Below, one piece after another: positions 1,267 through 38,512 of a DNA stretch of 40,145 nt. The translations under genes were made by a program, and so were the position numbers. The stretch is taken from IMG/VR virus record IMGVR_UViG_3300021509_000003; one strand, 5' to 3'. Origin of the DNA: a virus. The notes under the pieces were generated by a model that did no database searches, had not been told where the DNA came from, and saw only the letters and a program-made list of their open reading frames with translations. Within the stretch, counting starts at the first letter, position 1. The number at the start of each line of letters is the position of its first letter.

Positions 1267-1284
1267 TTACTCCTCCCTGCCTGC

Positions 1285-1647
1285 CTATTGTATATTATAT
1301 TTTTTTTCATCATAAATAATTTCTTCCTCAACTTGCATTTGCTTTTCAGCTTCTGTTACTGGGATTGCCTCAAGTAAAAACTCAATATCTTTAATAAGTA
1401 ATCCTATACAAAATTCCATAGGTTGTTGTGGGCTGTCAAAACATAATGTCCATAAATTTTCTTTTTTACCGCTTTCTTCATAGGCCTTCATAATTGTTTG
1501 CAATTTTTTATAAAATATTAATTTTTCCTTTCTACCGTGTAGATAAAATGTATATCTTCCTGTGCCTTTTGTAAGAGCATATTCTTCCTCTCCTGTTTCA
1601 GTCCTTACCCGCACCCGCCAATTCTCATTTTGTGCTATAAGTCCCAT
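1285..1647 (-). CDS. Hypothetical protein
   Basis: 120-aa ORF overlapping the upstream gene by 13 nt, suggesting an operon. Confidence 0.4.
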   Translation of the reverse strand: MGLIAQNENWRVRVRTETGEEEYALTKGTGRYTFYLHGRKEKLIFYKKLQTIMKAYEESGKKENLWTLCFDSPQQPMEFCIGLLIKDIEFLLEAIPVTEAEKQMQVEEEIIYDEKKYNIQ

Positions 1648-2665: not shown

Positions 2666-3675
2666 ATTACCACCTCTATTTCTAACAATTGAATAACATT
2701 AAATATTTTATTAGCGATGGTTACTTTATCGCTACCTGCAAAGAGCAATCCAATTAAAGACAAACCATTTTTAGTCTCTTTAACAACAGCACTACCGCTA
2801 TCTCCTGGAGCACTAAATTTTTGTGGTTTGTGGTCAATCAATATCTGGTCAACAAAATACGCTATATGGCCTTCTTTATCTATTTGAACTTGACATTCGT
2901 AATCAACTGCCCTCACCAATCCTTCTGTTACTCCAGTAGTGCGGCCAGATTTCATAACGGATTCGCCAAGTTTAACCGTGTCCACAGAGATAATATGCCC
3001 CAACTCAAGCAGTTCAGGATCAGCTGTATTATTACGCAATTTTGCTATTGCACAGTCAACTTTATTCTCTGGCATTTCCCCAAATACTTCTATTCCATAT
3101 TTAAAACGAAATTTACTGCCCAAGCAGTGGGCAAGAAAATTCAAAATATGTGTAACAGCTCGTGAATATGGACAATCAGCCGTTTTTATAGGAACAAATT
3201 TAAGAAGCTCTGCTACTTTATCTTCCAGCTTCCCTCCATCATAAGGACCTGGCTGTAAAATGGCATCCCCAATTTTACCTTTATTTACATTGGCAAGAAC
3301 ATGGTTATTGGAAACTAAAACTAATTCGCCTTTATGATATGCCAGAAATCCCGCTGTGCCAGCCGTTATATCCTTATGCCCAACTGAAACGCCCATTTTA
3401 AAAGGACGATATCTTTTTGTGCGGTCAATGGCTACTAATTTTTCTGCTACTTCTAAAAAAGTAATATCTCCTACCTCCATCACATCAGTAGGGATATTTT
3501 CAACTTCTCGTGGGACAACATCTTGGGGTTTGAGTTGGTCCAGAGGCAATTTTTTTCGCACAGTTATTACCAATCCTTCACCTGTAATTTGTCCTTTTCG
3601 GACGAGCAATCCTCTGCCCATTCCCAATACATTTTTCTTTTTATAAAGCGCTTTTTTTGCTTCTTTGCTTATCAT
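2662..3675 (-). CDS. Trypsin/chymotrypsin-fold (S1) serine protease with ~110-aa N-terminal extension
   Basis: Catalytic residues in canonical order: His in VSNNHVLANV, Asp in KVDCAIAKL, Ser in APGDSGSAVV. Confidence 0.6.
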   Translation of the reverse strand: MISKEAKKALYKKKNVLGMGRGLLVRKGQITGEGLVITVRKKLPLDQLKPQDVVPREVENIPTDVMEVGDITFLEVAEKLVAIDRTKRYRPFKMGVSVGHKDITAGTAGFLAYHKGELVLVSNNHVLANVNKGKIGDAILQPGPYDGGKLEDKVAELLKFVPIKTADCPYSRAVTHILNFLAHCLGSKFRFKYGIEVFGEMPENKVDCAIAKLRNNTADPELLELGHIISVDTVKLGESVMKSGRTTGVTEGLVRAVDYECQVQIDKEGHIAYFVDQILIDHKPQKFSAPGDSGSAVVKETKNGLSLIGLLFAGSDKVTIANKIFNVIQLLEIEVVI

Positions 3676-3960
3676 TTATTCTCCTACATAATACATAGTA
3701 AAATCAAACCATTTTTCATTTCTAACATACATTGTTCCTTTTAAAGCATGCTCGTTTATTTTTTCTAAGACATCTCGCACAGGCCAATATTTATAGTGCA
3801 GTTCCATATCTTTAATTTTAAAATCTGCCAAAAATAATTCGCTCCCCCAAGGAAGAAAGTTTTTCCCACTATCTCCTTCTATTTTTTTGGTCAGGATGTG
3901 TGTTTCCCCGATGTAAACTTTCCAATATCCATCAAGTATTTTATTCATTTTATTTGACAA
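3676..3960 (-). CDS. Hypothetical protein
   Basis: 94-aa ORF tightly packed in the same operon. Confidence 0.4.
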   Translation of the reverse strand: MSNKMNKILDGYWKVYIGETHILTKKIEGDSGKNFLPWGSELFLADFKIKDMELHYKYWPVRDVLEKINEHALKGTMYVRNEKWFDFTMYYVGE

Positions 3961-4465
3961 TTTCCTTTTTAATTAACTTACCACCAGCAGCTTGAATTAT
4001 GCAGATAAATATTTCGGGCGTTACCAGCCACGGTTTGATGTGACTCCATCCAAATATCTTTACCAATGGAGCAACACAGCCTTCACTGCAAAAATATTGT
4101 CCTTCTTTTTCCTTTCTCCATTTAGTAAAAAGTCCAAAAGCCGCTATATAATCAAAATATGCTCCTTTATTGGCAAGCCCCTGCATAAAATTATGTATAA
4201 AAACTTGCTGTGCTTCAGAAACTTCCAATTTCCATATTTCATATTTACTTCCTTTAGGGTAGCCTTTTAAAAATGGCCTAATAGCCCATTTTACTTTAAA
4301 AATTTTCCAAATATTTTCTGGCCAACATTCTATGGCATAATCAGGTCCTGCCTGTTCGGCAGGAATTAAATAGGCAATGTGGCTGTATTCACTTTGTGTT
4401 TGATACTCAATTACTTTTGCCAACCAATCATTACCTTTTAAAGCAATATATTTAATTTCAGCCAT
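3950..4465 (-). CDS. Permuted papain-fold cysteine peptidase/amidase (YiiX/C92-like, NlpC/P60 superfamily)
   Basis: His-containing EYSHIAYLIP precedes Cys-containing YFCSEGCV, the permuted order of this family. Contains an in-frame copy of the 16-mer cctgcctgttcggcag. Confidence 0.45.
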   Translation of the reverse strand: MAEIKYIALKGNDWLAKVIEYQTQSEYSHIAYLIPAEQAGPDYAIECWPENIWKIFKVKWAIRPFLKGYPKGSKYEIWKLEVSEAQQVFIHNFMQGLANKGAYFDYIAAFGLFTKWRKEKEGQYFCSEGCVAPLVKIFGWSHIKPWLVTPEIFICIIQAAGGKLIKKEIVK

Positions 4466-4482
4466 TTGAAACCCGCAAAATG

Positions 4483-4519
4483 CCTGCCCGACGGCAGGCG
4501 GGCCTGCCCGCAGACGGGC
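4483..4519 (-). terminator. Two tandem GC-rich hairpins immediately 3' of gene 4519-5271
   Basis: cctgcccgacggcagg (4483-4498, 6-bp stem) and gcccg-caga-cgggc (4506-4519); a short U-tract follows on the minus-strand RNA. Confidence 0.5.
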
Positions 4520-5271
4520 TATACATTATAATCTTCTACTACATAAGGCTCACTCTGCCCGGAAGGAGTAACTAATGTTCCTTCAAATTCAAGAGTGCCA
4601 AAATCATCAGCTAAAAAGTCAATTTCTGAAGAAGGTGTAAATACTGCTTTATAGACACGCACCTTGCAGTTTTTCCCATTTGCCCAATTTTTGCCGTTTA
4701 AAACAAATGCACCCTGCACTGTAGGTTTCTTTGAACCTGCCACTTTTTGATATGTTTTTGCCTCATAGCTGTAGTCCACTTTTAAAACTTGTCCTTCTGT
4801 AATATCTCCGCTAGATAGTGCTTTTATCATTCCCATGTCGTAATCTACTACATAGTCTTCATTTTCTGTATATGTAGTGTCTCCGCCTTCATTTGTTACT
4901 ATTGGTGCTGGGTCTTTCTTCACTCTGTCGTGTGCAAGGGCTACATATTTATCTAGCTTTGCATTGATAGTCTCATCAGTAACAGAACCCTCGCTAACAT
5001 CTTGAAGTGATGCCTCTCCTAAAAGTGCCATAGCTAAAGTATCTTTATCAAAATCATCCAGCGTGAAACTTATTTTTGCAGGCTGATGTAAATAAACAGT
5101 ATCAAGTGCTTGGCCATATGTATCCTTCATTTTGGAAAGACGTTCCTTTTTTTCAGTTGCTTCCTGAATAGCAAATTTAGTAGCATTGCCAATTTGCACC
5201 CAACCTGTGCTATTGCCCTCATCGTCAAATCTATCAAACCAAAGGTCTCCAGCTCCTATAAATCCAGCCAT
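4519..5271 (-). CDS. Putative major tail (tube) protein
   Basis: 250-aa acidic Thr/Gly-rich ORF with GGAGG RBS, followed by hairpins. Size and position resemble lambda gpV-type proteins; no motif-level proof. Confidence 0.35.
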   Translation of the reverse strand: MAGFIGAGDLWFDRFDDEGNSTGWVQIGNATKFAIQEATEKKERLSKMKDTYGQALDTVYLHQPAKISFTLDDFDKDTLAMALLGEASLQDVSEGSVTDETINAKLDKYVALAHDRVKKDPAPIVTNEGGDTTYTENEDYVVDYDMGMIKALSSGDITEGQVLKVDYSYEAKTYQKVAGSKKPTVQGAFVLNGKNWANGKNCKVRVYKAVFTPSSEIDFLADDFGTLEFEGTLVTPSGQSEPYVVEDYNV

Positions 5272-9562: not shown

Positions 9563-9583
9563 AAACAACCTCTCTTGCCTATC

Positions 9584-9637
9584 CCCGCCTGCCTGTCCCC
9601 GCCTGCCGTCGGGCAGGGGCAGACAGGCCTGCCTGTC
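9584..9637 (-). repeat. Composite GC-rich palindromic element between 9640-9999 and the next gene
   Basis: Contains cctgccgtcgggcagg (9602-9617) nested in a longer imperfect inverted repeat; same architecture as 36704-36752. Confidence 0.6.
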
Positions 9638-9639
9638 AG

Positions 9640-9999
9640 TTATGCCAGCATAACTTCTATCTCTGTAGTAGCACCAGCAGCTACTGTGCCCATTGCATAG
9701 CCAAAAAGAATGCCATTTGTAGCGTCTTTATTAATCTCGTCTCCATCTTTATATAGCTTATCCCAACGGGCAACGGCGCTATTGCCAGCGTCATCCTTTC
9801 CTGTAACATTCAATTTTACGACCACAGCATCACGGACAATTACTGTTGCCCCGCCATCATCATCTCTATCAGTCAAAGCAATTGCTGGAATTTCTGCTTT
9901 ATCTTCTCCTAATATAATAGGGTCTCCACTGTTCACACCTTCTGCAACAGAAGGTTCATAAAAAGTTGTGCCTTGTCCAAAGCTTATATTTTTTGCCAT
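9640..9999 (-). CDS. Putative capsid decoration/accessory head protein
   Basis: 119-aa Gly/Ala/Asp-rich ORF directly after the capsid gene, followed by a strong hairpin element. Confidence 0.3.
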   Translation of the reverse strand: MAKNISFGQGTTFYEPSVAEGVNSGDPIILGEDKAEIPAIALTDRDDDGGATVIVRDAVVVKLNVTGKDDAGNSAVARWDKLYKDGDEINKDATNGILFGYAMGTVAAGATTEIEVMLA

Positions 10000-10032: not shown

Positions 10033-12390
10033 TTAAGCACCTGGATTCTTATATAAAGCTTTCCAGCTTATGGCTTTTGCGCCTGCTTCAATCCTTACCT
10101 TAAATTCTACGCCATCAACATGCCAGCCTTCCTTTTGTTCAAGAGTAGGGGCCTGTTTCCCATCCAGGAAGAAAATAGTTACAGTCTTTCCTTTTGGTCC
10201 AGCCACATACCAAGCAGTGCCAGCATCATCTAAGCGTCCATCACTAATAACCTTTAAGTTGTATTTACGAAGAATATTAGGTTTGGCCGATACTTTCCCA
10301 CCAGTAGTAGAAAAATCTACATATTGCATGCCAAGCAATTCTTCTACATCCATTCCATCTTCAATACGGACAATTATAAATTGTGGTCTAATGTGAAGTC
10401 TGCGTTTACCGCCAATGTCTTTTTGTTTAAGCATAGCTTTTATGGCTGCTTTAATGGTATCTGTGCTTGGGGCTGCCCCGGCGCCGGCTAAGTTACCATG
10501 ACTAGAATGAAAAAGTGCCACACCATCGCCCATAGTTGGGTTTGTGGTCAAAACTTTATACGCTAAATCGGCTATTTTTCGCCTGGCTGCTGCACCCATT
10601 TCCTTTGGGATTCCAGTTAAGGCATTTAAATCATCATTTATGATTGTTTGTCTTGTGATAGAGAAAAGCTTGCCATAGGTGGCAATTGAATACTTCTCTT
10701 GCTGTTCGCTAACCGTGCCATATTTGTATTCTGCCCCTTCTGGAATTTTATCCAGGTCATCAAATTCACCTGGGCGAACCAGTTTATTTTCTTTAAAATC
10801 GCTAACAGAACCTACACCGCACCATTCACGCCAAGTTTCTGGTTCTTCTTCAAAGCCCTGCATTAAGGCCTTGTTGGCTACATTTTGAAGGATAAGAGGA
10901 AAATCAGAGGAAGTGTGTGTAAAAGCACGTGCTACCATGTCCATTTTGCTTAAGCCTCTACATGGAATATTTGACCTGATAAGACACTCTCTAGCTATTT
11001 CTACCAGAGGACGGTTAGCAAAATCCTCAGCCCCGCTATCTTTAACCTCTTCAGCAGAGACAAAACCAACTCTTAAAAGCAATCCATTCTGAACGGCCCT
11101 ATTAAATTTATCTTTTTCATCCTTACCTGTTACAGGTTCACCAGTTTCCATCCTTCCAACTGGAGTATTTCTTTCAGCCAGTTTTTGAAGAATTAAATCT
11201 TTTGCCCTTTCCACGGTGTATTTTTGCTCAATCATCTCATCCATCAACTTCTCATCAATATTATGCATTTTGCAAAGAGACCTAATCTCCATTACTCGCT
11301 TGCGTTCTGCTTCTTCTCCTTTTTTCCTTGCTTCCTCTATCTCTTTTTGTATTTCTTCAGGATTTTTAATTTCTTCTTTTCTTTTTTCTTCTGCCATTGT
11401 TTTATCCTCCTTTTTATTTTCTTGTCCGACTGTTCGACCCACACCTACCGAGGCATCGGCAGGCACAGGAGTTAAAGAAAACTCAAAAACACTCCATCTT
11501 TGCGCTATGTATGCAGGCCCCTTAAATCCATTCCATTGCTCTTTTTCTTGCAGTTTGAGCCATTTATGAACTTGATATCCAACTGAAACGCCCCGTAATG
11601 TCTGATCTTTAATTTCTTGATATGCTTCCAGGGCCTTTTGTGTAGTGCCAAACTGAATTATGGCACGGCCTTTTTTGTCCTCTTCATCAAGCCAAATTTT
11701 TAAAGGTTTGGCCACTCTTTGATTTGGGTCATGATTTATCAAAATGCTGCCAACTTCTTTTATCGGTTTAAAATTAATAGCGTCTTTTGTATGAAGTAAG
11801 ATTTCTTTTCCATACCAGCGTTCTACTGGCTCTTCTGAGCTAAAGCTCACTTCTACAATGCGGTTTTCATCATCCAGGATGCCACGCATTTCACAAGGAA
11901 AAGTGCGCCGCATTCTGGCGTCAGTAGGAGGGAGGTCTCTTTCATCTTCACTAGTAGGAAGATATGAGTCAGCCTCAAAAGTATCTAGTTGTTTTTCAAC
12001 ATTTTTTTTAAGAGCTGGAGGTTCTTTCCCAAATTTTTCATAATATTTCACGATATGCTTATATACATCTTCTCTATCTTTATCTGGTATGTTTACTCCT
12101 TTCCTAGCCCCATTTAATACCTGCATAGCTAATCTAACGCCATGCCAAACAGCTTGTAATTCATCATTAATTACATCAGCAAATTTTAATTTATAACCTT
12201 GAAATTCTTGCTCATGTTCTGAATCATACCAAAAAAATGCCTTTCTAAATTTTTTCCAATCGATTTTATCTTTATCACCAGACCCATCGCTACTTGCCCA
12301 CTTCCGCACATTTTTTTCAGCTTCATCATGATGATATGGACGCTCTAAATCCTCACATATAGATAAATTAACAAATGGTGTTACCGGCAT
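10033..12390 (-). CDS. Fused prohead protease (HK97/S78-like) + coiled-coil scaffold + major capsid protein (HK97 fold, Mu gpT-like)
   Basis: Protease motifs INHD, LRGVSVGYQ, FEFSLTPVPADASVG; Glu/Lys-rich coiled coil in the middle; capsid-like motifs ALFHSSHGNL and RLHIRPQFIIV. One uninterrupted 785-aa frame with GGAGG RBS. Confidence 0.7.
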   Translation of the reverse strand: MPVTPFVNLSICEDLERPYHHDEAEKNVRKWASSDGSGDKDKIDWKKFRKAFFWYDSEHEQEFQGYKLKFADVINDELQAVWHGVRLAMQVLNGARKGVNIPDKDREDVYKHIVKYYEKFGKEPPALKKNVEKQLDTFEADSYLPTSEDERDLPPTDARMRRTFPCEMRGILDDENRIVEVSFSSEEPVERWYGKEILLHTKDAINFKPIKEVGSILINHDPNQRVAKPLKIWLDEEDKKGRAIIQFGTTQKALEAYQEIKDQTLRGVSVGYQVHKWLKLQEKEQWNGFKGPAYIAQRWSVFEFSLTPVPADASVGVGRTVGQENKKEDKTMAEEKRKEEIKNPEEIQKEIEEARKKGEEAERKRVMEIRSLCKMHNIDEKLMDEMIEQKYTVERAKDLILQKLAERNTPVGRMETGEPVTGKDEKDKFNRAVQNGLLLRVGFVSAEEVKDSGAEDFANRPLVEIARECLIRSNIPCRGLSKMDMVARAFTHTSSDFPLILQNVANKALMQGFEEEPETWREWCGVGSVSDFKENKLVRPGEFDDLDKIPEGAEYKYGTVSEQQEKYSIATYGKLFSITRQTIINDDLNALTGIPKEMGAAARRKIADLAYKVLTTNPTMGDGVALFHSSHGNLAGAGAAPSTDTIKAAIKAMLKQKDIGGKRRLHIRPQFIIVRIEDGMDVEELLGMQYVDFSTTGGKVSAKPNILRKYNLKVISDGRLDDAGTAWYVAGPKGKTVTIFFLDGKQAPTLEQKEGWHVDGVEFKVRIEAGAKAISWKALYKNPGA

Positions 12391-14174
12391 ATTATTCCCT
12401 CCCGCCTGCCTGTTTGCTCAACAGATAAGCCTACCTGCCTGTTCGGCAGATAGGTCTGTCCAATAGGCAAGCTATTTTTAGCCTTTTTTTCTTCTTGAGC
12501 CTTTGCCCAATTTTTGACCCATTGTTTGGCCTGGCTCACTGTCCATTTATCTTTATCAAAAATAAAAGAAATAATTTTTTTACAATCTATACAGTAACGG
12601 GCTTGTATTCCCTTTTTTTCACTGATTGTGATAGTGCGAATTTCATGACCTTTATGTTTTCCCTCTTCTCCAGGAACCGGCACATGAATTTTATTTTCTG
12701 TTACTTCAACTCGAGTTTGAATATCCTGAAATTTTACTTGCATTTGTGATATATCAGTGAGACCTAAATCATTTAAATATTGTTTTTCTTTTGCTCTTTG
12801 ATTGGCTATTTCTTGCCAATCTTTACCTTTAACAGCACATTCATCCGCCAAGCTAGTTAAACCAAGTTGCAGTTCTAACTTCTTTGCCTGAGCTTCTTTC
12901 AATGGGTCAACCCAATCAAAACCTTTGAAAATCCAGCGGTGTTTCAGCCAATTTTCAGGAGCCTTAATAAATCCCTGAACCTGCAAATAGCCGCTCACGA
13001 TGCCATATTTCACAAAGTCTTCCCAGATAGGTTGGAGAAAATATCTTTCAAGTGCTTTCCGGAATGGAAGCATATAATCCCGCAGTTCTAATTCACTATG
13101 CCGAGTAGAAGAATAATTTACATCTGATTTATCACCACTTATTTGTTCATATGAAAGATTTACGCCTCGGCCCATGCCCCGCAAAATAATTTTTACAAAA
13201 TCTGGGAAAGTGCTGCCTGGACGTTTAGGATTGATAACTTCTATTTCTTCTCCTGGGCCAAGATGTTCTACCATTCCAGGAGCTATCTCTATTTCTCTTT
13301 CTTTTGTTTCTGTATTTTGAGTGCTAGTTTGCATGCGTCCCCATATATCAGATGTCTTTATAATTATTCCAAAACAGGCAGCTACTTTGGCAGACATTAG
13401 TTCTGCTTCTAAAAGTTCTGAAAGGTGATAAGCGAGGGGAATAACAGGAGCTAAAAGTGGAATGCCCATCAATTGTCCAGGACGGCGAAAAGGAGAAAAG
13501 TGAATAATATCTTGGGCAGGAATGCGAATGGATTGTTGTTTCAAAATGAATGGATTAGAAATATCTACTTTCCAGAAATGATAAGCAACTATTTTACCTG
13601 TTTGGTCTATCTCAAAACCATTCCAGTTCCAATTATCCTTTTTAGGCGTGCCCATACCACATAAACGGCTATATTCCAGTGCTTCAAGACAAAAAGGGAA
13701 ATCTCTGGATTTATCTATAACTTTGTGGAAAAAAATGCCTCCATCTAAAAATAATTTTAAAATTGCCAGCCGTTCCAGGTCTCCAAAATGAAATTGGTCG
13801 TAATAATCGGCTACTCGTGCCCACTGTTTAAATACATTCTCAGCCTTAGAATTAAATTGTTCGTTATCTGTGAGAGCCTGTGGTGTGCTGCCTCCACCAA
13901 TCATGCGGTTAACAATCAGGTCGATACTGCCACGAACAAAAGATTCATTCCAATATAGATAATTGGCTCTAGCTCTGACTGTTTGCAGGTCTGAGAAATT
14001 ATCATTTGGACCTTCTGCGCTGGTAGTCCAATATGAAGACATGCGGTCTTTAGAAGCAGCTTTTAAATGCCTGCGAACTACTTTTTGAAGATATTCCCGC
14101 TTTGCCTTCCATTTTGGGAAAGCTGCCCAAAAAAAGGCGTCCAGGGCTTTTGAAATGGATTTTAAAATGTTCAT
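12381..14174 (-). CDS. Portal protein, lambda gpB family
   Basis: LSYEQISGDKS... and VKGKDWQEIANQRAKE align with lambda gpB VSYEQLSRNY... and KRGDDYQEIFAQQVRE. Follows a gpW-like gene with ATGA overlap. Confidence 0.85.
   Translation of the reverse strand: MNILKSISKALDAFFWAAFPKWKAKREYLQKVVRRHLKAASKDRMSSYWTTSAEGPNDNFSDLQTVRARANYLYWNESFVRGSIDLIVNRMIGGGSTPQALTDNEQFNSKAENVFKQWARVADYYDQFHFGDLERLAILKLFLDGGIFFHKVIDKSRDFPFCLEALEYSRLCGMGTPKKDNWNWNGFEIDQTGKIVAYHFWKVDISNPFILKQQSIRIPAQDIIHFSPFRRPGQLMGIPLLAPVIPLAYHLSELLEAELMSAKVAACFGIIIKTSDIWGRMQTSTQNTETKEREIEIAPGMVEHLGPGEEIEVINPKRPGSTFPDFVKIILRGMGRGVNLSYEQISGDKSDVNYSSTRHSELELRDYMLPFRKALERYFLQPIWEDFVKYGIVSGYLQVQGFIKAPENWLKHRWIFKGFDWVDPLKEAQAKKLELQLGLTSLADECAVKGKDWQEIANQRAKEKQYLNDLGLTDISQMQVKFQDIQTRVEVTENKIHVPVPGEEGKHKGHEIRTITISEKKGIQARYCIDCKKIISFIFDKDKWTVSQAKQWVKNWAKAQEEKKAKNSLPIGQTYLPNRQVGLSVEQTGRREGIICR
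12401..12460 (-). repeat. GC-rich palindromic element at the portal/capsid junction
   Basis: gcctgcctgtt (12404-12414) and cctgcctgttcggcag (12434-12449); lies in the 3' tail of the portal ORF and upstream of the capsid RBS. Confidence 0.55.
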
Positions 14175-15475: not shown

Positions 15476-17317
15476 TTATCGAAGCCACCCTGGCCTCCTG
15501 GACAACCAAGAATTTTTTAAATGGCGTCTTTGTTGTTGAATTATCTGTTGTGTCTGTTGTGGTGGAGATTCTGTTATAATAGGTTGTAAATATCGCACTT
15601 GAAGATGGTCCGCAGCACAAAAAGCATATACAGAAGCGTCTAAATAGTGATTTTGAGTTGCTACTTGCACCCACTCCTCATAATACCGCAACCCTTTTCT
15701 AATTCTTCTCTTTTCCTCAGCTATTATTTGAGTTGCGTAATCCATACCAGTAGCTTTGTGTAAATTCCAACTGCCTGATTGTCCACTTTCTATTTGAAGT
15801 TTTCTATTGATAGCATCTTTATAATAATCGGTGTTAATCAGAATAAGGCGTAATCCGCCGGGAATAGGTTTATTTTTACCTGGATATTTATCAATAATGC
15901 TTTCACGAAAAGGCACGCCACTCGTTTTAGTGCTCATGCCTTTGATTGCATATACAATACCTCTCCCATTGCGGCGCACCCATTCATAAACTTCATCTGT
16001 GCGATGACCACCGCTGTCAATAAAAGCACGCATAATAGGAATAGTTTTATCGTCCAAACGGTAGGCAGAATAAAACAAAATAAGTTCAAGTTCTTCCCAA
16101 TTATGGGCGAATCCATATCTAATCATCCATGTGGTTAAATCTAAATCATTAGCCCAGGCATGGATGACATAATAAAAACCATCTTCTTGAGTATCTACCC
16201 CAGCAGTGAGAGCCACAGCTTGTGGTGGAACTACTCCAGGGTCAAGATTTCCTCGCAAGCATAAAATTTCTTCTTCTTTACGTTTTTCTATAACTTCTTT
16301 CCAAGGCTCTGCTAAACGACTATTTACAAAATCCATCAGAAGAGCTGGATCATCTTTTGCTTCCAAAAATTCAGCCGCAATTTCTCCCCAAGTAACAAAA
16401 GGAGAATATAAACCAGATAAATGAAATCCTACCTTCCTTCTTTTTGTTGATTTTTCTTCTACAATTTCCCATTTTCCTTGGGTCAACATTTCTTGTTTTT
16501 CACTTTCTTTTATATGCGCATGACATTTTTCACATTCATACCAGGCAATATCTCGAATAATTTCAGGGTCCTTCTCTTCTTTAGGCCACTTAATGTTTTG
16601 AAATTGCAAAAATTGGTATTCTCCACAATATGGACAGGGAACAGCATAACGATATATCACATTACAAGATTGTAATTGCCTCCAAATATTCCCTGTCTCA
16701 AGAGTAGGTGTACTCGTATAAATAATTTTTTTAAAACTTTTAGTATATGTGCTGGTTCTTTTTTTTGCTAAAGCAATTGGGTCGGCTTCTTTGCCAGAAA
16801 ATGGTGGATATTTATCTATTTCATCTAAGATTAGATAGCGTATAGGACGTGAAGATAAAACAGCCGGGGAATTTGACCAGCCTAAAAAAACTGTCATAGA
16901 TTGAAATTTCATTTCTAAAAGCTGGAAGTCAAAAGCGTTTGGAGTTTTCCTATCTCGCAGAACACTACAAGCATCTATACTTGGCTGTAATCTATTTCTA
17001 GAAAAACCCTCTGCTACATCTTGAGTAGGAAAGACAAAAAGAAGTGGACCAGGGTCTTGATGTATAACATATCCAATAAAATTAATTTCTGCTTCTGTTT
17101 TCCCTAATTGAGCAGCGGCGCAAAATACAATTTCTTCTACTTCTATATCGCAAAAAGTATCCATAATAGTACGTAAATATGGAGTTCTTTCTGTTCTCCA
17201 AGGACCTGGCTCTTTTGATGATCTAGGCACAAGCACACGATAGCGGTCAGCCCATTCACTTACTGTGATACCTTCAGGCAATTGAAGAACTCTTTTTTCT
17301 CGTTCAGTCAAATTCAT
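15476..17317 (-). CDS. Terminase large subunit, lambda gpA family
   Basis: Blocks shared with lambda gpA: VSEWAD, CPYCGEYQFLQF...YECEKCHAHI (gpA ACPHCGEEQYLKF...YLCEHNAC), LYSPFVTW (gpA YSPFTTW), LDASVYAFCAA (gpA LDCFVYALAA). Confidence 0.9.
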   Translation of the reverse strand: MNLTEREKRVLQLPEGITVSEWADRYRVLVPRSSKEPGPWRTERTPYLRTIMDTFCDIEVEEIVFCAAAQLGKTEAEINFIGYVIHQDPGPLLFVFPTQDVAEGFSRNRLQPSIDACSVLRDRKTPNAFDFQLLEMKFQSMTVFLGWSNSPAVLSSRPIRYLILDEIDKYPPFSGKEADPIALAKKRTSTYTKSFKKIIYTSTPTLETGNIWRQLQSCNVIYRYAVPCPYCGEYQFLQFQNIKWPKEEKDPEIIRDIAWYECEKCHAHIKESEKQEMLTQGKWEIVEEKSTKRRKVGFHLSGLYSPFVTWGEIAAEFLEAKDDPALLMDFVNSRLAEPWKEVIEKRKEEEILCLRGNLDPGVVPPQAVALTAGVDTQEDGFYYVIHAWANDLDLTTWMIRYGFAHNWEELELILFYSAYRLDDKTIPIMRAFIDSGGHRTDEVYEWVRRNGRGIVYAIKGMSTKTSGVPFRESIIDKYPGKNKPIPGGLRLILINTDYYKDAINRKLQIESGQSGSWNLHKATGMDYATQIIAEEKRRIRKGLRYYEEWVQVATQNHYLDASVYAFCAADHLQVRYLQPIITESPPQQTQQIIQQQRRHLKNSWLSRRPGWLR

Positions 17318-21678: not shown

Positions 21679-22428
21679 TTAATCAGAATATGGCATAATC
21701 CGCCCATATTTTTCACTTCCTTTAAAATCAGTGTTAGGGGACATTTCCTTTTTTTGTTGTTTATCCATTGCCTTCCCGTCTGTCCGACAGGTAATCCCTA
21801 GCGACTTCTTTATTTCCCACACTATCTGTGTCTCTAGCGACCTTAGTTCTTCAGCTGCTTTCTGTTCTAACTTCTCGAATGTCTCCGGGGATACGCTAAA
21901 ATCAACCCAAATCCGATATTTACTTACAGCAGGTCCTTGTTTTCGCTGTATAGGTGGTAATTGGCCCCTCTTTTTCAACCTTTCATAACAAGCAGCGCAA
22001 AGCCCTCTAGCCTTATGGGTCTTTCTCCGCCCACATTCTGCACAAATTACTATTTTCTTACTTTCTGCCATTATCTTCTCCTTTCTCTTATAAACTTCTT
22101 CACAGAGCACTTTCCACTCTGTGCAATCTTCACATACCCCAGGCATAGGAAATATATTAGGGTTTGTCCATTGGCCAATTTCTTTCAGCCTGGGCCTTTT
22201 TCTGTTTGCCTCACATTGTTTAGGACTAATCCGTCCTAAACCATGCGGGCATATGAAAGTATTGGCCTCTAGCCAACGTATCTTATCTTCGTCAACCTGC
22301 CCAACTCCTGAACCACTTCTTGGCGGGTTAGATGTATCTAAATTTCCTTTTATTGGTTGATATCCTTTTTCTCTCTTATATTTCTTTGCTTTCCCCAAAG
22401 GATGCTGCTCTTTACTCAATTCAATCAT
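21679..22428 (-). CDS. Cys-rich hypothetical protein (multiple CxxC pairs)
   Basis: 249-aa ORF with CEDC, CAEC and CAAC pairs; basic. Confidence 0.4.
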   Translation of the reverse strand: MIELSKEQHPLGKAKKYKREKGYQPIKGNLDTSNPPRSGSGVGQVDEDKIRWLEANTFICPHGLGRISPKQCEANRKRPRLKEIGQWTNPNIFPMPGVCEDCTEWKVLCEEVYKRKEKIMAESKKIVICAECGRRKTHKARGLCAACYERLKKRGQLPPIQRKQGPAVSKYRIWVDFSVSPETFEKLEQKAAEELRSLETQIVWEIKKSLGITCRTDGKAMDKQQKKEMSPNTDFKGSEKYGRIMPYSD

Positions 22429-22717: not shown

Positions 22718-22731
22718 TTCTACTTTTTTAG

Positions 22732-22817
22732 CGGAGGGGGCAGGATTTGAACCTGCAGAGTTTTTAAAAACTCGTGGTTCTCAAGACCACTGCTTTAAAC
22801 CACTCGGCCACCCCTCC
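22732..22817 (-). tRNA. tRNA-Ser (anticodon UGA), type II with long variable arm; CCA not encoded
   Basis: Manual fold: acceptor GGAGGGG/CCCCTCC, anticodon stem GTGGT/ACCAC with loop CTTGAGA, variable arm GAGTTTTTAAAAACTC, T-arm GCAGG-TTCAAAT-CCTGC, discriminator G. D-stem is weak (GCC/AGC). Confidence 0.8.
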
Positions 22818-23995: not shown

Positions 23996-24035
23996 ATTAT
24001 ACAGCTATTAGTTTAATTTGTCAAGGGGGAAATTA
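23996..24035 (-). promoter_or_regulatory. Perfect consensus sigma70-type promoter on the minus strand (copy 1 of a 40-bp exact repeat)
   Basis: Minus strand reads TTGACA (plus 24019-24024), 17-nt spacer, TATAAT (plus 23996-24001). Identical 40-mer at 28110-28149. Confidence 0.6.
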
Positions 24036-24049
24036 TACTAAAAGGGGAA

Positions 24050-24904: not shown

Positions 24905-24946
24905 GGAGAGATGCCCGAGAGGCCGAAGGGGCACGACTGGAAATCG
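24905..24946 (+). other. attP candidate: 5' half of a type II tRNA (Ser, anticodon GGA)
   Basis: Acceptor GGAGAGA, TG, D-arm CCC-GAGAGGCCGAA-GGG, anticodon stem CACGA, loop CTGGAAA, then TCG; tRNA-likeness ends there. No T-arm or 3' acceptor strand. About 40 bp past the integrase stop. Confidence 0.45.
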
Positions 24947-24988: not shown

Positions 24989-26014
24989 TTACCCTGTGGG
25001 TCTTTTTAGTTTTTTAATTGCATTAATTAAATGTTCTTTTGTTAAATGTGAATAAATAAGTGTAGTAGATATATCACTATGCCCTAAAAGTTCTTGCACT
25101 GTTCTTAAATCCACCCCCGCCATGATAAGTTTGCTAGCAAAAGTATGTCTAAGACAATGTAAAGTGTAACCTTCAAGACCTGCTTGTTTAAACCAGGTAG
25201 AGAATTTTTTACTTACATATTTAGGGTCAAAACTTTTAAATATTTTGCCAATTTTAATAACTTCCGGATCATTATTCATTTCTTGGATAATTTCTTTCAA
25301 TTCAGAACTAATTGGTACATATCTTATTTTCTTGGTTTTGGTTTTTCTAAAAAGGATAAAACCATCTTTTATGTCTTGCCAATTAAGATTAAGCACTTCG
25401 TTTCTTCTGGCTCCTGTATTTAGATAAAATTCAAATAGCCAACGCCATTGTGTGTCTTTGATTTGCTTTCTCACAGCATTTATTTGTTTATCTGTAAGAA
25501 ATTTAAGCGGTTTTTCCTGGATTGATAGTTGTTTATAACCTGATAATTGATTATACTTTAAATATCCCCATTCAACTGCTTTTGAAAAAGCAGCCTTTAT
25601 GGTGCGGATGTCTATATTACATGTAGCTCTGGATTGGCCTTGTTTAAGCCTCATGTTAACTAATTTATCTAAATGTTTCTTATTGATTGCTTTAATATCT
25701 AAATTGCCAGTAATCTGTCTGAGTAATCTAAAAGCATTCTGAGCAATACGATAGCTGGCTTCAGATAAATATTTTTCAATATAGTCAAGATATTCTTGAA
25801 CAAAATCGTCTAGTCTAACAGTTCTTTCAAGAAGGCTAAGTTTTCTTAATAAATATTCCCTTTTTGCTTTGGTGAAAATAACCTGGGCCTCAGCTTTATT
25901 TTTTGTGCCGAGGCTTTTTTTCCGCCGTCGGCCATTCTCAGACCAATAAATATACCATACGCCATTGTCTCTCTTTTTTAGGCGCATGATTATGCTTAGC
26001 CTATCAGGAATCAT
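24989..26014 (-). CDS. int: Tyrosine site-specific integrase
   Basis: C-terminal catalytic region HCLRHTFASKLIMAGVDLRTVQELLGHSDISTTLIYSHL with the R...HxxR...Y signature. Confidence 0.9.
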   Translation of the reverse strand: MIPDRLSIIMRLKKRDNGVWYIYWSENGRRRKKSLGTKNKAEAQVIFTKAKREYLLRKLSLLERTVRLDDFVQEYLDYIEKYLSEASYRIAQNAFRLLRQITGNLDIKAINKKHLDKLVNMRLKQGQSRATCNIDIRTIKAAFSKAVEWGYLKYNQLSGYKQLSIQEKPLKFLTDKQINAVRKQIKDTQWRWLFEFYLNTGARRNEVLNLNWQDIKDGFILFRKTKTKKIRYVPISSELKEIIQEMNNDPEVIKIGKIFKSFDPKYVSKKFSTWFKQAGLEGYTLHCLRHTFASKLIMAGVDLRTVQELLGHSDISTTLIYSHLTKEHLINAIKKLKRPTG

Positions 26015-28109: not shown

Positions 28110-28149
28110 ATTATACAGCTATTAGTTTAATTTGTCAAGGGGGAAATTA
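28110..28149 (-). promoter_or_regulatory. Perfect consensus sigma70-type promoter (copy 2 of the 40-bp repeat)
   Basis: Identical 40-mer to 23996-24035; about 110 bp upstream of the start at 28001. Confidence 0.55.
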
Positions 28150-28243
28150 ATCCAATAGTTATATTAAAGAAAAAATTTATTCATATTTAGCCGTAGAGAC
28201 AATTTCTTGTATAAGAAGGTAGTTTATGTCATGTTAAGGCAAA

Positions 28244-31126: not shown

Positions 31127-32787
31127 TAATCACCATATCCCTCAGCTGTTATTCTTGATAACAATTCTGTGCCTTCTGTTGTCTTCTGCATTGTTATTTC
31201 TACATTCTTTACTCGTAAAGGCGGGAGGGCAGCTAGAATGTCATGTAGATCAATTTCTTTTTCTTCTGCTCCTTCTACTTGTTTATTTACACATACATCC
31301 TCATCAATAGAAAGTTCTACATCCGTTCCAGCTTCTATATCATATTGCCCGGGGCCCTCGATTACTACTTGATATTTACATTTTGTTATCCTTTCAATAA
31401 TAGCTGAGAGGTCAGGACATTCTCCCTCAAATTCAATTTCTTTATCTTCTCCTTCACTCCCTATCTCAATAATTATTGTTTCGGTAGCAATTCTATCTTC
31501 ACTTTGTGCAAAAGGTAATGTGGGAATATTGGGTTGAGGTGACATGATTGTCTTTTCACTATCTGCTCTTTCCTGGGCAATCTGTGAAACTTTTTTCCAT
31601 TCTCCGCCTTCATATTCATATACTACCGTCCAATGCACTTCGCTATTTGATATACGCACTATATCCTCTGACACTTTTGAGTATTCAGTATTGCTTTCAT
31701 ATATAACAGCTTCTTGGGGGGTGTTTGGTAAGGCAATTGATTTTGTTGTTACTTCTTGTTTTAAAAAGTCATCTTCATAGAAATATTGTGTATCTTCTAT
31801 ATTTGTTTGGGTTAATTCCTGATTAGTGTATATTTCTTCTTCTGTATGCTTTTTAACAAGTTTTCGGCTTCTAATGAAATATTTATTAACATCATCAATT
31901 TCAGGGTCATATTCAAAAGTAACAATCTTTCTTTTAACCATCCCAAGCTTCCATTTAAGATTATAATTTGCATCTCTATAATATACTTTCCCATAATGTT
32001 CCTCTTTTTCTTCCAGCGTAAATCCTGCCTCTGATGTTACATATCTTACAATCCTATTTATTATTTTTCCTTTGTTGTTATATCTTTCCTCTACTGTACG
32101 CTTTGTTTCTTGATCAATTGTTCTTGGGCTATAGACATTCACAATTAAATTACGCACTCTAGGCGGTTGACTTTTTGTTATAGAAAGTGATTTCAACCAG
32201 AATCCATCTCCAAACTTTAAATTATATGGGCTTCCTATTTCCTGACAATATAAAACCTTTACAGCATTTTTAGTAATGTACACATCAGCCGTTCTCACAA
32301 TCTGATTGAATGGCGCTAATAATTCTTCAAGACATTTTTTGAACGTGCCCACATAGCTTTTAACAGGATTTATAAGAGATACAACTTTGTAATTAAGCCG
32401 GCTGTCCCAATACAAATCCACTCCTGCCTGTTCGGCAAGCAATTTAGCTACTTGCCCAGATGTAATATCTCCAATCAATACAGGAGATAATCCTTCTGCT
32501 AATCTGCCATCATAACATACATAACACATAACCTCTTTTTGTATTTTTTGTGAAATATTGCTTAAAAATTCAACTGTTGCTACATATTCTTGATTCCGCA
32601 AAGATAAATTTATTCTCTGCCACTTACCATCTAAAGATATAGTTTTTGCAGTCCCAGGAATATTGATTGTAACTTCACATTCTTGAGTTTTTGCATATTT
32701 TATGCACTCCCAGTCAGGAATTTCATATTCCCCTATGGGTGCTATATTTACATCATATCTTATAGACTTACGCTTGACTTCGCTCAT
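31126..32787 (-). CDS. Tail/baseplate structural protein
   Basis: 553-aa ORF in the distal tail block, ATGA-coupled to the upstream gene; contains an in-frame CCTGCC-N5-GGCAaG copy at 32423-32439. Confidence 0.4.
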   Translation of the reverse strand: MSEVKRKSIRYDVNIAPIGEYEIPDWECIKYAKTQECEVTINIPGTAKTISLDGKWQRINLSLRNQEYVATVEFLSNISQKIQKEVMCYVCYDGRLAEGLSPVLIGDITSGQVAKLLAEQAGVDLYWDSRLNYKVVSLINPVKSYVGTFKKCLEELLAPFNQIVRTADVYITKNAVKVLYCQEIGSPYNLKFGDGFWLKSLSITKSQPPRVRNLIVNVYSPRTIDQETKRTVEERYNNKGKIINRIVRYVTSEAGFTLEEKEEHYGKVYYRDANYNLKWKLGMVKRKIVTFEYDPEIDDVNKYFIRSRKLVKKHTEEEIYTNQELTQTNIEDTQYFYEDDFLKQEVTTKSIALPNTPQEAVIYESNTEYSKVSEDIVRISNSEVHWTVVYEYEGGEWKKVSQIAQERADSEKTIMSPQPNIPTLPFAQSEDRIATETIIIEIGSEGEDKEIEFEGECPDLSAIIERITKCKYQVVIEGPGQYDIEAGTDVELSIDEDVCVNKQVEGAEEKEIDLHDILAALPPLRVKNVEITMQKTTEGTELLSRITAEGYGD

Positions 32788-35528: not shown

Positions 35529-35689
35529 TTATGCAAATCTCGTTATATATGCCCTATATCCTTTTAAATCTCTCTTTGTTCTTTCTCCAATACGAGCCTT
35601 TTTATTTGCTCGCAACCCATCAAAATTGCGAGCAGCTCTTTTACCACAGCAAGTTTTTTTATCAGCTCTTAATCCTTTATATTCTGCCA

Positions 35690-36701: not shown

Positions 36702-37049
36702 TTACCTGCCTGTTCCCTGCCCGACTGGCAGGCGGGGGCAGACAGGCTTGCCTAGTTTTAAAACATTTTTATATGGAAAATATGAAAGACTATAAAAGAC
36801 CTCAAGCACTTTCTCTCCTTTAAATATGTATCCCCTAACACTATCTCCGAACACTCCTCCAAATTCCACTCCTATTATTTGTCCTTTTCCACCCATACTT
36901 GCTATTGCATGCCTTACAAAATAATAGCTATCTGCATTCGTGATTTTTTTGCCATTTAGTTCAAGCTCAACAATAGGTTTAGAAATATCAGGAAAATAAC
37001 CATCTTTTTCTGTCCATACACTACCATCTATTAACGTTGCTTTCCACAT
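36702..37049 (-). CDS. Hypothetical tail protein
   Basis: 115-aa ORF with AAGGAG RBS; its last 12 codons run through the palindromic element. Confidence 0.4.
   Translation of the reverse strand: MWKATLIDGSVWTEKDGYFPDISKPIVELELNGKKITNADSYYFVRHAIASMGGKGQIIGVEFGGVFGDSVRGYIFKGEKVLEVFYSLSYFPYKNVLKLGKPVCPRLPVGQGTGR
36704..36752 (-). repeat. Composite GC-rich palindromic element (paralogue of 9584-9637)
   Basis: Contains cctgcccgactggcagg (36716-36732); flanks parallel those of 9584-9637. Confidence 0.6.
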
Positions 37050-37062
37050 ATTTTTTCTCCTT

Positions 37063-37105
37063 CCTGCCCCCGACTATCGGCAAGTTATGTTACCCAAAGG
37101 GCAGG
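37063..37105 (-). repeat. GC-rich inverted repeat CCTGCCC...GGGCAGG spanning the stop of 37085-37708
   Basis: cctgccc (37063-37069) and gggcagg (37099-37105), with inner palindrome ccgactatcgg. Confidence 0.5.
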
Positions 37106-37720: not shown

Positions 37721-37760
37721 CGCCTGCCTGCCTGCCAGTTGGGCAGGTTAAGCAGGCCTT
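37721..37760 (-). repeat. GC-rich palindrome CCTGCC-agttg-GGCAGG between tail genes
   Basis: cctgccagttgggcagg at 37731-37747, preceded by gcctgcctg. Confidence 0.55.
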
Positions 37761-37762
37761 AG

Positions 37763-38086
37763 CTATTCTAAAATTATCAGGCTTGCCCCACCATCTCTAA
37801 AATCAGTGATAGGGGGTAATTCTTTTATTGACAGACTTAAAAAATATACATTATAATTTCTTCCATAAATATCAGTATATGTTGTTTTTTTTGCTACTTT
37901 GCTTTTTAAAGTATCCATATCACTTTTTTTAATCCTAAAAGATATATCAATTCTTTTTTTTGCTTTCTCTGCATATTGCACAACAGTTGAACCACAAACC
38001 AATTCGTGTTCTGTTGCTTCCCCCTCCAGTCCCTCATCAATTGTCTTTACATCATATATAGACACACCAGCCAATGTAGCAATCAT
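37763..38086 (-). CDS. Hypothetical tail protein
   Basis: 107-aa ORF. Confidence 0.4.
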   Translation of the reverse strand: MIATLAGVSIYDVKTIDEGLEGEATEHELVCGSTVVQYAEKAKKRIDISFRIKKSDMDTLKSKVAKKTTYTDIYGRNYNVYFLSLSIKELPPITDFRDGGASLIILE

Positions 38087-38512
38087 TTACACCTCTGTAA
38101 TAGATACAAAATTTCCGCCTTCCTGTCTGAACCGTGCTATAAAAGGCAATTTTAACCAATCTTCTGAAACTACATCAGTAGATGCATCAGGCTTCAATAT
38201 AGCAGGCCCTTCAATTTTTATAGAAGAGCCTTTCAGGTAAGAAGAAACAAATTTGAATGTGCATTTTTTTGGTTTTTCCATTAAAAAATCCTGCCATCTT
38301 GAAACAGACAGTTTATCAACACTGAATCGCAATCTTACATCCGTCGCCCGAGCCACTTCATCTTCAAGCCTCATTATATATTTACCGTTGATATTAACTG
38401 GTTTTTTTATTTCTTCTGTTTCAAAATCAATTTCTAACACACAATCTACAGCTTCTCCCCAATTTTCTTCATCTATATATATTTCACCTCCACCTAAACA
38501 AAATGCAGCCAC
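38087..38512 (-). CDS. Hypothetical tail protein immediately after tape measure
   Basis: 141-aa ORF; GTG start overlapping the tape measure stop. Confidence 0.4.
   Translation of the reverse strand: MAAFCLGGGEIYIDEENWGEAVDCVLEIDFETEEIKKPVNINGKYIMRLEDEVARATDVRLRFSVDKLSVSRWQDFLMEKPKKCTFKFVSSYLKGSSIKIEGPAILKPDASTDVVSEDWLKLPFIARFRQEGGNFVSITEV

Follow-up and report, generated by a model that had tools for sequence, protein, structure and literature searches.

A REP-like tagged hairpin, probably mobile, scattered through a temperate phage genome and shared with bacteria of many phyla

Repetitive extragenic palindromic (REP) elements are short (20-40 bp) GC-rich stem-loops, imperfectly palindromic, with an unpaired tetranucleotide at one end; they are dispersed, mostly between genes, some of them intragenic or nested, and have been assigned to GTAG and CGTC superfamilies (Di Nocera et al., PMC3733652). 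Some REP families are common to distant taxa, and the elements have been proposed to stabilize mRNA 3′ ends; Rickettsia palindromic elements (RPEs) lie in frame within protein-coding genes and add a short peptide to the product (PMC3733652). REP sequences include REPINs and BIMEs and are mobilized by REP-associated tyrosine transposases (RAYTs). Here, we describe a hairpin family in IMG/VR virus record IMGVR_UViG_3300021509_000003, a stretch of 40,145 nt that was analyzed whole and is called the window below. It holds the complete genome of a temperate siphovirus-like phage, assembled as a circle, with ~36% GC and nearly all genes on the minus strand. In the core unit of the family, which measures 20/21 bp, a 6-bp stem (CCTGCC/GGCAGG) encloses a loop of 4-5 nt, CGAC(N), and one end bears an unpaired CGGG tag. 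The mechanism by which REP-like repeats spread is still under debate, as is the question of whether they act as parasites or as tools, and direct before-and-after insertion sites are rare. We consider it probable (roughly 0.7) that the unit is a selfish, REP-like miniature palindromic repeat that forms nested composites and is mobilized in trans, its RNA hairpins between cistrons being a side effect. Scattered copies, gain and loss of the unit among relatives, and the same sequence in unrelated bacteria all argue for selfish REP-like DNA rather than a purpose-built expression signal.

The phage unit resembles REP elements in being a 20/21-nt GC-rich stem-loop with a 6-bp stem, a loop of 4-5 nt and a tetranucleotide tag at one end. 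Its phage copies are dispersed, four of the seven at intercistronic junctions and others intragenic, and some are clustered or nested into larger hairpins. However, its tag is CGGG/CCCG and not GTAG/CGTC, and we therefore file the unit in neither described superfamily; the string CGTC is confined to the loop junction, away from the ends. Unlike REP elements, the unit shows no link that we could find to a RAYT, has one 20-mer that is nearly unchanged across many phyla, and is present in phage genomes, where its unit-precise insertion is visible directly between near-identical genomes. The likeness to RPEs lies in a phage unit that is in frame, encoding PARQAGG in the window and absent from a homologue, P0126. 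RPEs are ~100-150 bp long and confined to Rickettsia, whereas the phage unit has 20-21 bp (7 codons) and occurs in a phage and many phyla. The GC clusters of yeast mitochondria are short GC-rich mobile palindromes in an AT-rich genome, for which no dedicated transposase has been identified; they nest and can be in frame. The phage unit is like them as a short GC-rich palindrome in an AT-rich genome, but they are eukaryotic, organellar and unrelated in sequence. Stable stem-loops also stand between cistrons at T7 RNase III sites, at the Correia (NEMIS) elements of Neisseria, which are processed by RNase III, and at the REP sequences of malEFG. Those sites are positionally conserved or have been shown to be processed, whereas the positions of the phage units vary among close relatives and their stem-loops are predicted. 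Mycobacterial interspersed repetitive units (MIRUs) are intercistronic operon repeats that, like the phage units, overlap flanking stop and start signals; they are tandem repeats of 46-100 bp and not palindromes, in contrast to the phage units.

The earlier note on this DNA described two paralogous composite hairpins, which we call el1 (9584-9637) and el2 (36704-36752). Both are found at these positions and read on the plus strand as it described them, namely CCTGCCTGTCCCC-GCCTGCC-GTCG-GGCAGG-GGCAGACAGGCCTGCCT in el1 and CCTGCCTGTTCC-CTGCC-CGACT-GGCAGG-CGGGGGCAGACAGGCTTGCCT in el2. Their similarity extends beyond the CCTGCC/GGCAGG cores, because they share a CGGG-tailed core of 20/21 nt and, enclosing it, a 10+10-nt outer palindrome (CCTGTCTGCC...GACAGGCAGG on the sense, or minus, strand); they are thus two copies of one element. 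Read on the sense strand, the outer arm CCTGTCTGCC occupies 9618-9627 in el1 and 36737-36746 in el2, and the second arm, G/AACAGGCAGG, occupies 9588-9597 and 36705-36714. The transcribed strand reads TAA-CT-GACAGGCAGG-CCTGTCTGCC-(CCTGCC CGAC GGCAGG CGGG)-GACAGGCAGG-CGGGGATAGGCAAGAGAGGTTGTTT-ATG at el1 and GCAAG-CCTGTCTGCC-(CCCG CCTGCC AGTCG GGCAGG)-GAACAGGCAGG-TAAGGAGGCAATA-ATG at el2. The two elements are isomers of a ~41-44-bp composite, with opposite core orientation and a second, related palindrome around the core. The proposed paralogy therefore stands, but the elements are not plain direct copies, since the core is inverted in el2, nor are they a pair, being two of at least seven units. 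The gene context given for them was roughly right: el1 follows a small open reading frame (ORF) past the capsid fusion gene, and el2 lies between a 115-aa ORF and the gene of a 333-aa structural protein. El2 encodes the final ~17 codons and the stop of the 115-aa ORF (ORF115; 36702-37049), and its 3′ end adjoins the Shine-Dalgarno (SD) sequence TAAGGAGG; in el1, the terminal CGGGGATAGGCAAGAGAGG contains the SD of the downstream gene. RNA structure prediction, which the earlier note had proposed, gave stable sense-strand folds for el1 (-41.2 kcal/mol) and el2 (-29.5 kcal/mol).

Close relatives show gain and loss of the unit. A genome that is 98.2% identical over 5.2 kb (L001) is without exactly CCTGCCCGACGGCAGGCGGG (9598-9617), the outer palindrome being left joined, CCTGTCTGCC directly to GACAGGCAGG; it has an extra 26-nt module of the same vocabulary downstream at el1, and all of its indels are confined to el1. 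Another relative (L016) differs from the window over 9.7 kb by seven substitutions and a single indel, 17 nt absent at 37733-37749, and in both comparisons every indel falls within the elements. P0126, closely homologous to the C-terminal portion of the 914-aa ORF, reads ..IWN-------ENEQ.. and is without exactly PARQAGG (7 residues = 21 nt, 33435-33455). The same protein carries a 15-aa insert, PVGQGTGGPARPAGG, elsewhere. Within this insert, PARPAGG is the expected translation of a CGACC-loop core, and PVGQGTG recurs in the el2-encoded tail of ORF115; the corresponding site in the window adjoins a GGCAGG half-site, TGGCAGGAT (32990-32995). The loop that contains PAEQAG in the 171-aa ORF is 5-6 residues shorter in most homologues. 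In three relatives of ~90% identity (L028, L029 and L030), a 13-nt spacer with its own SD (AAAGGGGTTACCC in L028) replaces the 71-nt el1. There is no hairpin at the el1 junction in L031, and no related hairpin in L034-L042. The CGGG tag belongs to the unit in both unit-precise indels (L001 and P0126). From this unit-precise presence and absence, the mobile entity would be the bare 20/21-nt tagged hairpin, which appears to sit preferentially in or beside existing copies. Near-identical phages with clean gain and loss, including a 7-codon in-frame insertion in a tail-region gene, define the mobile unit exactly. Capsid-based scans yielded few close relatives in the viral and metagenome collections and none in the genome contig collection. 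The unit family is missing from more distant relatives, whether of the capsid or of the 333-aa protein; those of the 333-aa protein were rejected as a comparison set because they are too distant and without the elements.

We searched the window, with filters off, using a covariance model (R1) built from 45 bacterial copies and three variant window copies (37724-37751, 12427-12454 and 4341-4367). This recovered seven significant units, with E-values from 4e-9 to 9e-4, plus one relic; several half-sites are also present (Table 1). The string CCGCCTGCCTG has seven matches in the window with at most one mismatch (0.13 expected), and CCTGCC occurs 47 times (11.7 expected). Four of the seven units have the canonical form CCTGCC-CGAC(N)-GGCAGG-CGGG, and five are on the sense strand, with two antisense. 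Four occupy intercistronic junctions, where two of them extend into the end of the preceding ORF; of the other three, two are within ORFs and one is at the 3′ end of the portal ORF, just before the capsid gene. The unit is found in tight spacers of the late operon and, if its length is divisible by three, in coding sequence as well; the copy in the 914-aa ORF is flanked by TGGAAC and GAAAAT. The double hairpin behind the major tail protein gene holds a canonical 20-nt core on the plus (antisense) strand at 4483-4502. Several copies lead directly into the SD of the next gene, as in GGCAGGCAGGCGGGGAGGATTAAAATG. The unit at 37727-37747 is followed by GGCGGGGAGGA, the SD of a 207-aa ORF (ATG 37708). 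In element 3 (el3), the variant unit TCTGCC-GAACA-GGCAGG-TAGG (12430-12450) is accompanied by a half-unit, AACAGGCAGG (12405-12414), that leads into the capsid-gene SD GGGAGGG (ATG 12390). ORF ends, such as those of the portal ORF and ORF115, can therefore be made of repeat sequence. At the site orthologous to the relic, phage contig L164 (7567-7593) has an intact CCTGCCCGACAGGCAGGCGGG, followed by AAGG-N3-ATG.

Table 1. Hairpin units, related sites and principal genes of the window, with model R1 scores in bits.
Feature	Position	Strand	Remarks
el1	9569-9639	-	entire 71-nt GC-rich spacer, stop of 119-aa ORF to ATG (9568) of 96-aa ORF
el1 parts		-	half-unit GACAGGCAGG 9637-9628; arm CCTGTCTGCC 9627-9618; core; arm GACAGGCAGG 9597-9588; CGGGGATAGGCAAGAGAGG
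el1 core, CCTGCC-CGAC-GGCAGG-CGGG	9598-9617	-	canonical, 20 nt; R1 35.2 bits, exact pattern
el2	36704-36756	-	between 115-aa ORF body and ATG (36691) of 333-aa structural protein gene, tail-end module
el2 core, CCTGCC-CGACT-GGCAGG-CGGG	36716-36736	+	canonical, 21 nt; R1 38.7 bits; inverted relative to transcription and to el1
R1 match	33432-33459	-	38.8 bits
R1 match	36712-36739	+	38.7 bits
R1 match	4479-4505	+	38.4 bits
R1 match	9595-9621	-	35.2 bits
R1 match	37724-37751	-	34.6 bits
R1 match	12427-12454	-	25.9 bits
R1 match	4341-4367	-	20.0 bits
Canonical 21-nt core, CCTGCCCGACAGGCAGGCGGG	33435-33455	-	in frame in 914-aa ORF (32784-35528), encodes PARQAGG
GC-rich double hairpin	4471-4526	-	directly after stop of major tail protein gene; sense RNA then AUUUUGCGGGUUU
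Variant unit, CCTGCC-CAACT-GGCAGG-CAGG	37727-37747	-	nested in outer stem GGCCUGCUU/AGGCAGGC
el3, long hairpin	12397-12462	-	inside 3′ end of portal ORF; -38.1 kcal/mol, z -4.1
Variant unit, CCTGCC-GAACA-GGCAGG	4343-4363	-	in frame in 171-aa ORF (3950-4465), encodes PAEQAG
Degenerate relic	21768-21795	-	early region; R1 8.8 bits, E ~1.3, not significant alone
Half-site GGCAGGCAGG	1276-1285	-	fused to SD GGGAGGAG of ORF 952-1266
Half-site AACAGGCAGG	32423-32432	-	
Large terminase	15476-17317		
Portal ORF	12381-14174		597 aa
Protease-major capsid fusion	10033-12390		785 aa
Small 119-aa ORF	9640-9999		just after capsid fusion; L031 homologue with weak Phage_cement_2 match
Major tail protein gene	4519-5271		
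Tape-measure-like ORF	38512-40143		extends to window end
Tail-end module	38512-28590		
Lysogeny module			integrase 24989-26014; cI-like repressor (plus strand); CII-like protein

The same sequence is found far outside this phage. An exact 20/21-mer scan of a bacterial genome collection (596 Gb) gave at least 122 places in at least 120 bacterial stretches. At least 91 of these places belong to loci with less than 50% GC, against an expectation of under one in the whole 596 Gb; the 31 high-GC places among the matches listed are compatible with chance and mostly fall within ORFs. Low-GC hosts among the matches listed are Bacteroidota, Planctomycetota (several in Ca. Scalindua), Ignavibacteria, Omnitrophota, Nitrospirae, Neomarinimicrobiota, a Desulfotomaculum metagenome-assembled genome (MAG) and Patescibacteria, and a few of the matches listed are isolates (Lacibacter, Cognataquiflexum and Maribacter). 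Sixty of the 91 low-GC matches listed fall outside long ORFs, and several MAGs have 3-5 matches each among the first 120 listed. Genomes and MAGs with several matches include Ca. Scalindua sediminis VSDH01, Saprospiraceae MAG-138 JAHDCQ01, Bacteroidales JAFGTR01, Lacibacter CP116002 and Cognataquiflexum. Whole composites recur as well: the el1 type (type 1), identical over ~40 nt, in the Desulfotomaculum MAG and at two loci of Ca. Scalindua (Ca. Scalindua sediminis), and the el2-type isomer (type 2) in three other MAGs. Among the matches listed, bacterial copies show no orientation bias relative to neighboring genes, and no neighboring gene recurs within 3 kb of the 120 copies listed. Some copies are embedded in larger genus-specific repeats. 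Some matches are also close to contig ends (within ~100 nt), which would fit a sequence present there in multiple copies. The unit occurs, again fused to gene starts, in L164 and L165, two mosaic phage contigs of the same sample series. A megablast search with 24 kb of the window against GenBank phages gave no match, blastn of el1 against phages and plasmids gave chance-level matches only, in high-GC records, and a literature search by sequence string returned nothing relevant. The idea that the core always lies in the loop of a host hairpin was dropped as a general rule, as flank complementarity was only modestly above control: flank stems of at least five adjacent pairs occurred in 8% versus 2.3% of controls, with minimum free energies of -24.0 versus -22.6 kcal/mol.

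Some of the bacterial loci have further structure. In a Bacteroidales MAG (JAFGTR01), tandem canonical cores 36-44 nt apart form a small array (L119, 797-860; L136, 5370-5430), separated by AT-rich repeats of the GATTTGATGA type. A triple-hairpin context, CCGCC-GAAG-GCGGATC-core-CGCC-TCTG-GCGGA, recurs in L054, L057, L059, L064, L069, L100, L101, L117 and L132, all from Planctomycetia, Ignavibacteria and Omnitrophota MAGs; several of these loci have tRNA genes in the same 8-kb stretch. A related perfect palindrome, CCTGCCTGCC|GGCAGGCAGG, recurs in the same genomes, at L057 (three sites, 2873-3457), L058, L059, L117 and L158, and in L158 a canonical core lies inside a palindrome of this type. 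In Saprospiraceae MAGs (L075, L131, L141, L143 and L151) and in L076, L085 and L093 (Cognataquiflexum), the core stands within longer lineage-specific repeats of ~100-150 nt with inverted-repeat ends, which are reminiscent of core-carrying miniature inverted-repeat transposable elements (MITEs).

Among the phage ORFs scanned with PHROGs or Pfam, we found no transposase, reverse transcriptase or Rep gene, and no RAYT. With no transposase found there, the unit is probably mobilized in trans. The likeliest agent would be a host enzyme that acts on single-stranded hairpin DNA, such as a RAYT/IS200-type HUH transposase or similar, and mobilization could take place during the prophage state or phage replication. 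An apparent bias toward insertion within or beside copies already present would generate the nested composites, and transcribed copies would fold into very stable stem-loops between cistrons. Insertions into spacers may be tolerated because their G-rich tag and tail (GGCGGGGAGG) either provide the SD of the following gene or adjoin it. Possible effects on the stability, processing or translation of the mRNA would be secondary.

A different reading is that the hairpins are purpose-built RNA signals of the late operon, acting as 3′ stabilizers, RNase III/RNase Y sites or attenuators that tune the output of the capsid, decoration, major tail and neighboring genes. The earlier note had leaned this way in suggesting that copies were placed after highly expressed structural genes. 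In its favor, the predicted sense-strand folds of el1, el2 and el3 are stable, and the U.G pairs are on the sense strand. One copy precedes the capsid gene, another follows the decoration-like ORF, and a third, with AUUUUG...UUU behind it, follows the major tail gene. An unrelated hairpin occupies the corresponding position ahead of the capsid SD in L028, and the inner hairpin of el3 passes a simple terminator scan. Yet units also lie in frame within the 914-aa and 171-aa ORFs, in the final part of the portal ORF and ahead of several minor tail-module genes, they occur in both orientations, and neither el1 nor el2 has a U-tract. Furthermore, copies come and go as a unit among genomes that are 98-99.9% identical, the relative of 90% identity makes do with a 13-nt spacer at the el1 junction (and L031 with no hairpin), and the identical sequence occurs in unrelated bacteria without orientation bias. 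These observations do not support designed placement, and we regard a primary expression role as rather unlikely. Somewhat more doubtful again is an origin without transposition, in which the hairpins would be mutational hot spots: half-sites (CCTGCC/GGCAGG) would allow template switching or slippage that repeatedly builds and trims perfect or imperfect palindromes, and gene conversion between copies would homogenize them. This would account for new sequence beside pre-existing GGCAGG half-sites (the indel at 37733-37749, and the P0126 insert by its half-site), for the lack of target duplications, and for (GGCA)n runs and the perfect palindrome CCTGCCTGCCGGCAGGCAGG in several bacteria. The copy at 33435-33455, however, is a full canonical 21-mer with loop and tag that has no nearby half-site, and many phyla share the same 20-mer, asymmetric CGGG tag included, which local template switching would not yield. 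Binding sites of a phage regulator, stoperator- or operator-like and spread across the late operon, would fit an oriented 9-10-mer, [G/A]ACAGGCAGG, that favors the sense strand 8:0 and often directly precedes a gene start; the same units in bacteria and within ORFs, their dispensability in close relatives and the lack of any linked candidate binding protein make this very improbable. We give hardly any credence to an assembly or chimera artifact. The repeats are short and GC-rich and some bacterial matches are at contig ends, but the same elements appear in independent assemblies of different samples (L001, L002/L015, L016, L164 and L165, and the isolates Lacibacter, Cognataquiflexum and Maribacter).

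Several observations count against a selfish repeat that moves by transposition, even though it is the reading that we favor. We infer transposition from presence/absence patterns only, and the P0126 comparison is at the protein level only. The 17-nt indel at 37733-37749 is not unit-precise and could be a hairpin-mediated deletion. There is no target-site duplication at the two clean empty/filled pairs, between GCC and GAC in L001 and between AAC and GAA in P0126. All seven units are in the late region, although this is marginal (~0.05 by chance, by our estimate). The strand of the outer stem that forms U.G pairs is the sense strand at both el1 and el2, and in six bacterial composites examined the orientation of flanking genes mostly fits the same sense-strand reading. 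At the portal/capsid junction of L028-L030, just before the capsid SD, there is an unrelated, AT-richer hairpin. This independent hairpin, the U.G bias and the 8:0 strand distribution of [G/A]ACAGGCAGG hint at some selection at the RNA level. The units may thus have a secondary role as intercistronic stabilizers, barriers or attenuators, although these observations do not make that role the primary explanation.

Other identities fit poorly or were rejected. Intrinsic terminators do not fit, because there is no terminator-like call at el1, el2, 33435 or 37727; a loose scan picks up only the inner hairpin at 12430-12454, and AUUUUG follows the copy at 4483-4502. A late promoter is incompatible with a motif 0-25 nt from start codons, which leaves no room for a transcription start and an SD, and there is no consensus at el1 or el2. 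An RNase III-type intercistronic processing site of the phage fits poorly, as the position is not conserved among the relatives L028-L030, L031 and L034-L042. MITEs are 70-300 bp long, with terminal inverted repeats and target-site duplications; the unit has 20-21 bp and no target duplication at the empty/filled pairs. A put-like antiterminator, a hairpin of a diversity-generating retroelement, an attC site, a CRISPR repeat and an HUH replication origin were rejected on copy number, context, loop size or a lack of partner genes, with no reverse transcriptase or Rep among the phage ORFs scanned. Rfam searches of the whole window (E<=1) and of 18 bacterial loci (gathering threshold) returned tRNAs and a sub-threshold sX4 match at a tRNA-Ser gene, and nothing at the elements.

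We tentatively propose, as a possibility that we hold to be less likely than its opposite, that the CGGG/CCCG-tagged 20-21-bp hairpin represents an unclassified REP-type superfamily, conserved almost base for base across Bacteroidota, Planctomycetota (including the anammox Scalindua), Ignavibacteriota, Omnitrophota, Nitrospirota, Firmicutes and Patescibacteria. In this proposal, the superfamily would be active now, inserting bare, without target duplication and preferentially at existing copies; it would enter temperate phages, including in frame in virion genes, and phages may spread it between hosts. The tag is unlike those of the two described REP superfamilies, and with phages and many phyla sharing a near-identical unit, the question arises whether it has spread across phyla. 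The phages also offer a natural system in which to study the effects of such hairpins on polycistronic mRNAs. For annotation, the findings advise caution: in an AT-rich phage, a GC-rich hairpin between cistrons is not necessarily a terminator or a regulatory site.

Two further features involve hairpins. Between 11937 and 12657 in the window and 9460 and 9874 in L028, the portal C-terminus and the capsid N-terminus are replaced; the L028 portal ORF has 518 aa (597 aa in the window) and its capsid fusion 739 aa (785 aa in the window). This looks like a mosaic exchange bounded by the hairpin element. Another hairpin, at 37055-37105 on the minus strand, has the stem CCCUGCCC/GGGGGCAGG and a ~30-nt loop that holds the stop of the 207-aa ORF; it ends at the SD of the next gene, AAGGAG, and does not match the covariance model.

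Other repeats and signals lie elsewhere in the genome. Positions 1-127 and 40019-40145 form a 127-bp terminal direct repeat of 100% identity. L016 spans this junction with a single copy, so the repeat is an assembly overlap and the genome circular or circularly permuted; the tape-measure-like ORF (end 38512) presumably runs on across the junction. A 49-nt direct repeat (23996-24044 and 28110-28158, minus strand, 92% identical) stands on each side of the integrase module and contains a perfect sigma-70 consensus, TTGACA-17 nt-TATAAT, on the minus strand, which speaks against Bacteroidota as the host. Of the two copies, one is directed toward the early genes beside the repressor gene, and the other is 4.1 kb off, beyond the integrase module. 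At 24905-24945 on the plus strand, the GC-rich GGAGAGATGCCCGAGAGGCCGAAGGGGCACGACTGGAAATCG resembles the 5′ half of a tRNA-Ser(GGA) gene; its position just past the 3′ end of the integrase gene makes it a likely attP core, which could point to the host. The early region also carries a complete tRNA-Ser gene (anticodon UGA; 22731-22817, minus strand), which the sub-threshold sX4 match overlaps. A 66-nt repeat is present three times at 35452-35679, around the place where the 333-aa gene meets the 914-aa ORF; two of its copies have 82% and 61% identity to the reference copy. Finally, a 12/12 match to the sigma-70 consensus (TTGACA-18-TATAAT) at 37828-37857 on the plus strand is antisense to the late genes and stands ~80 nt from the element at 37727-37747.

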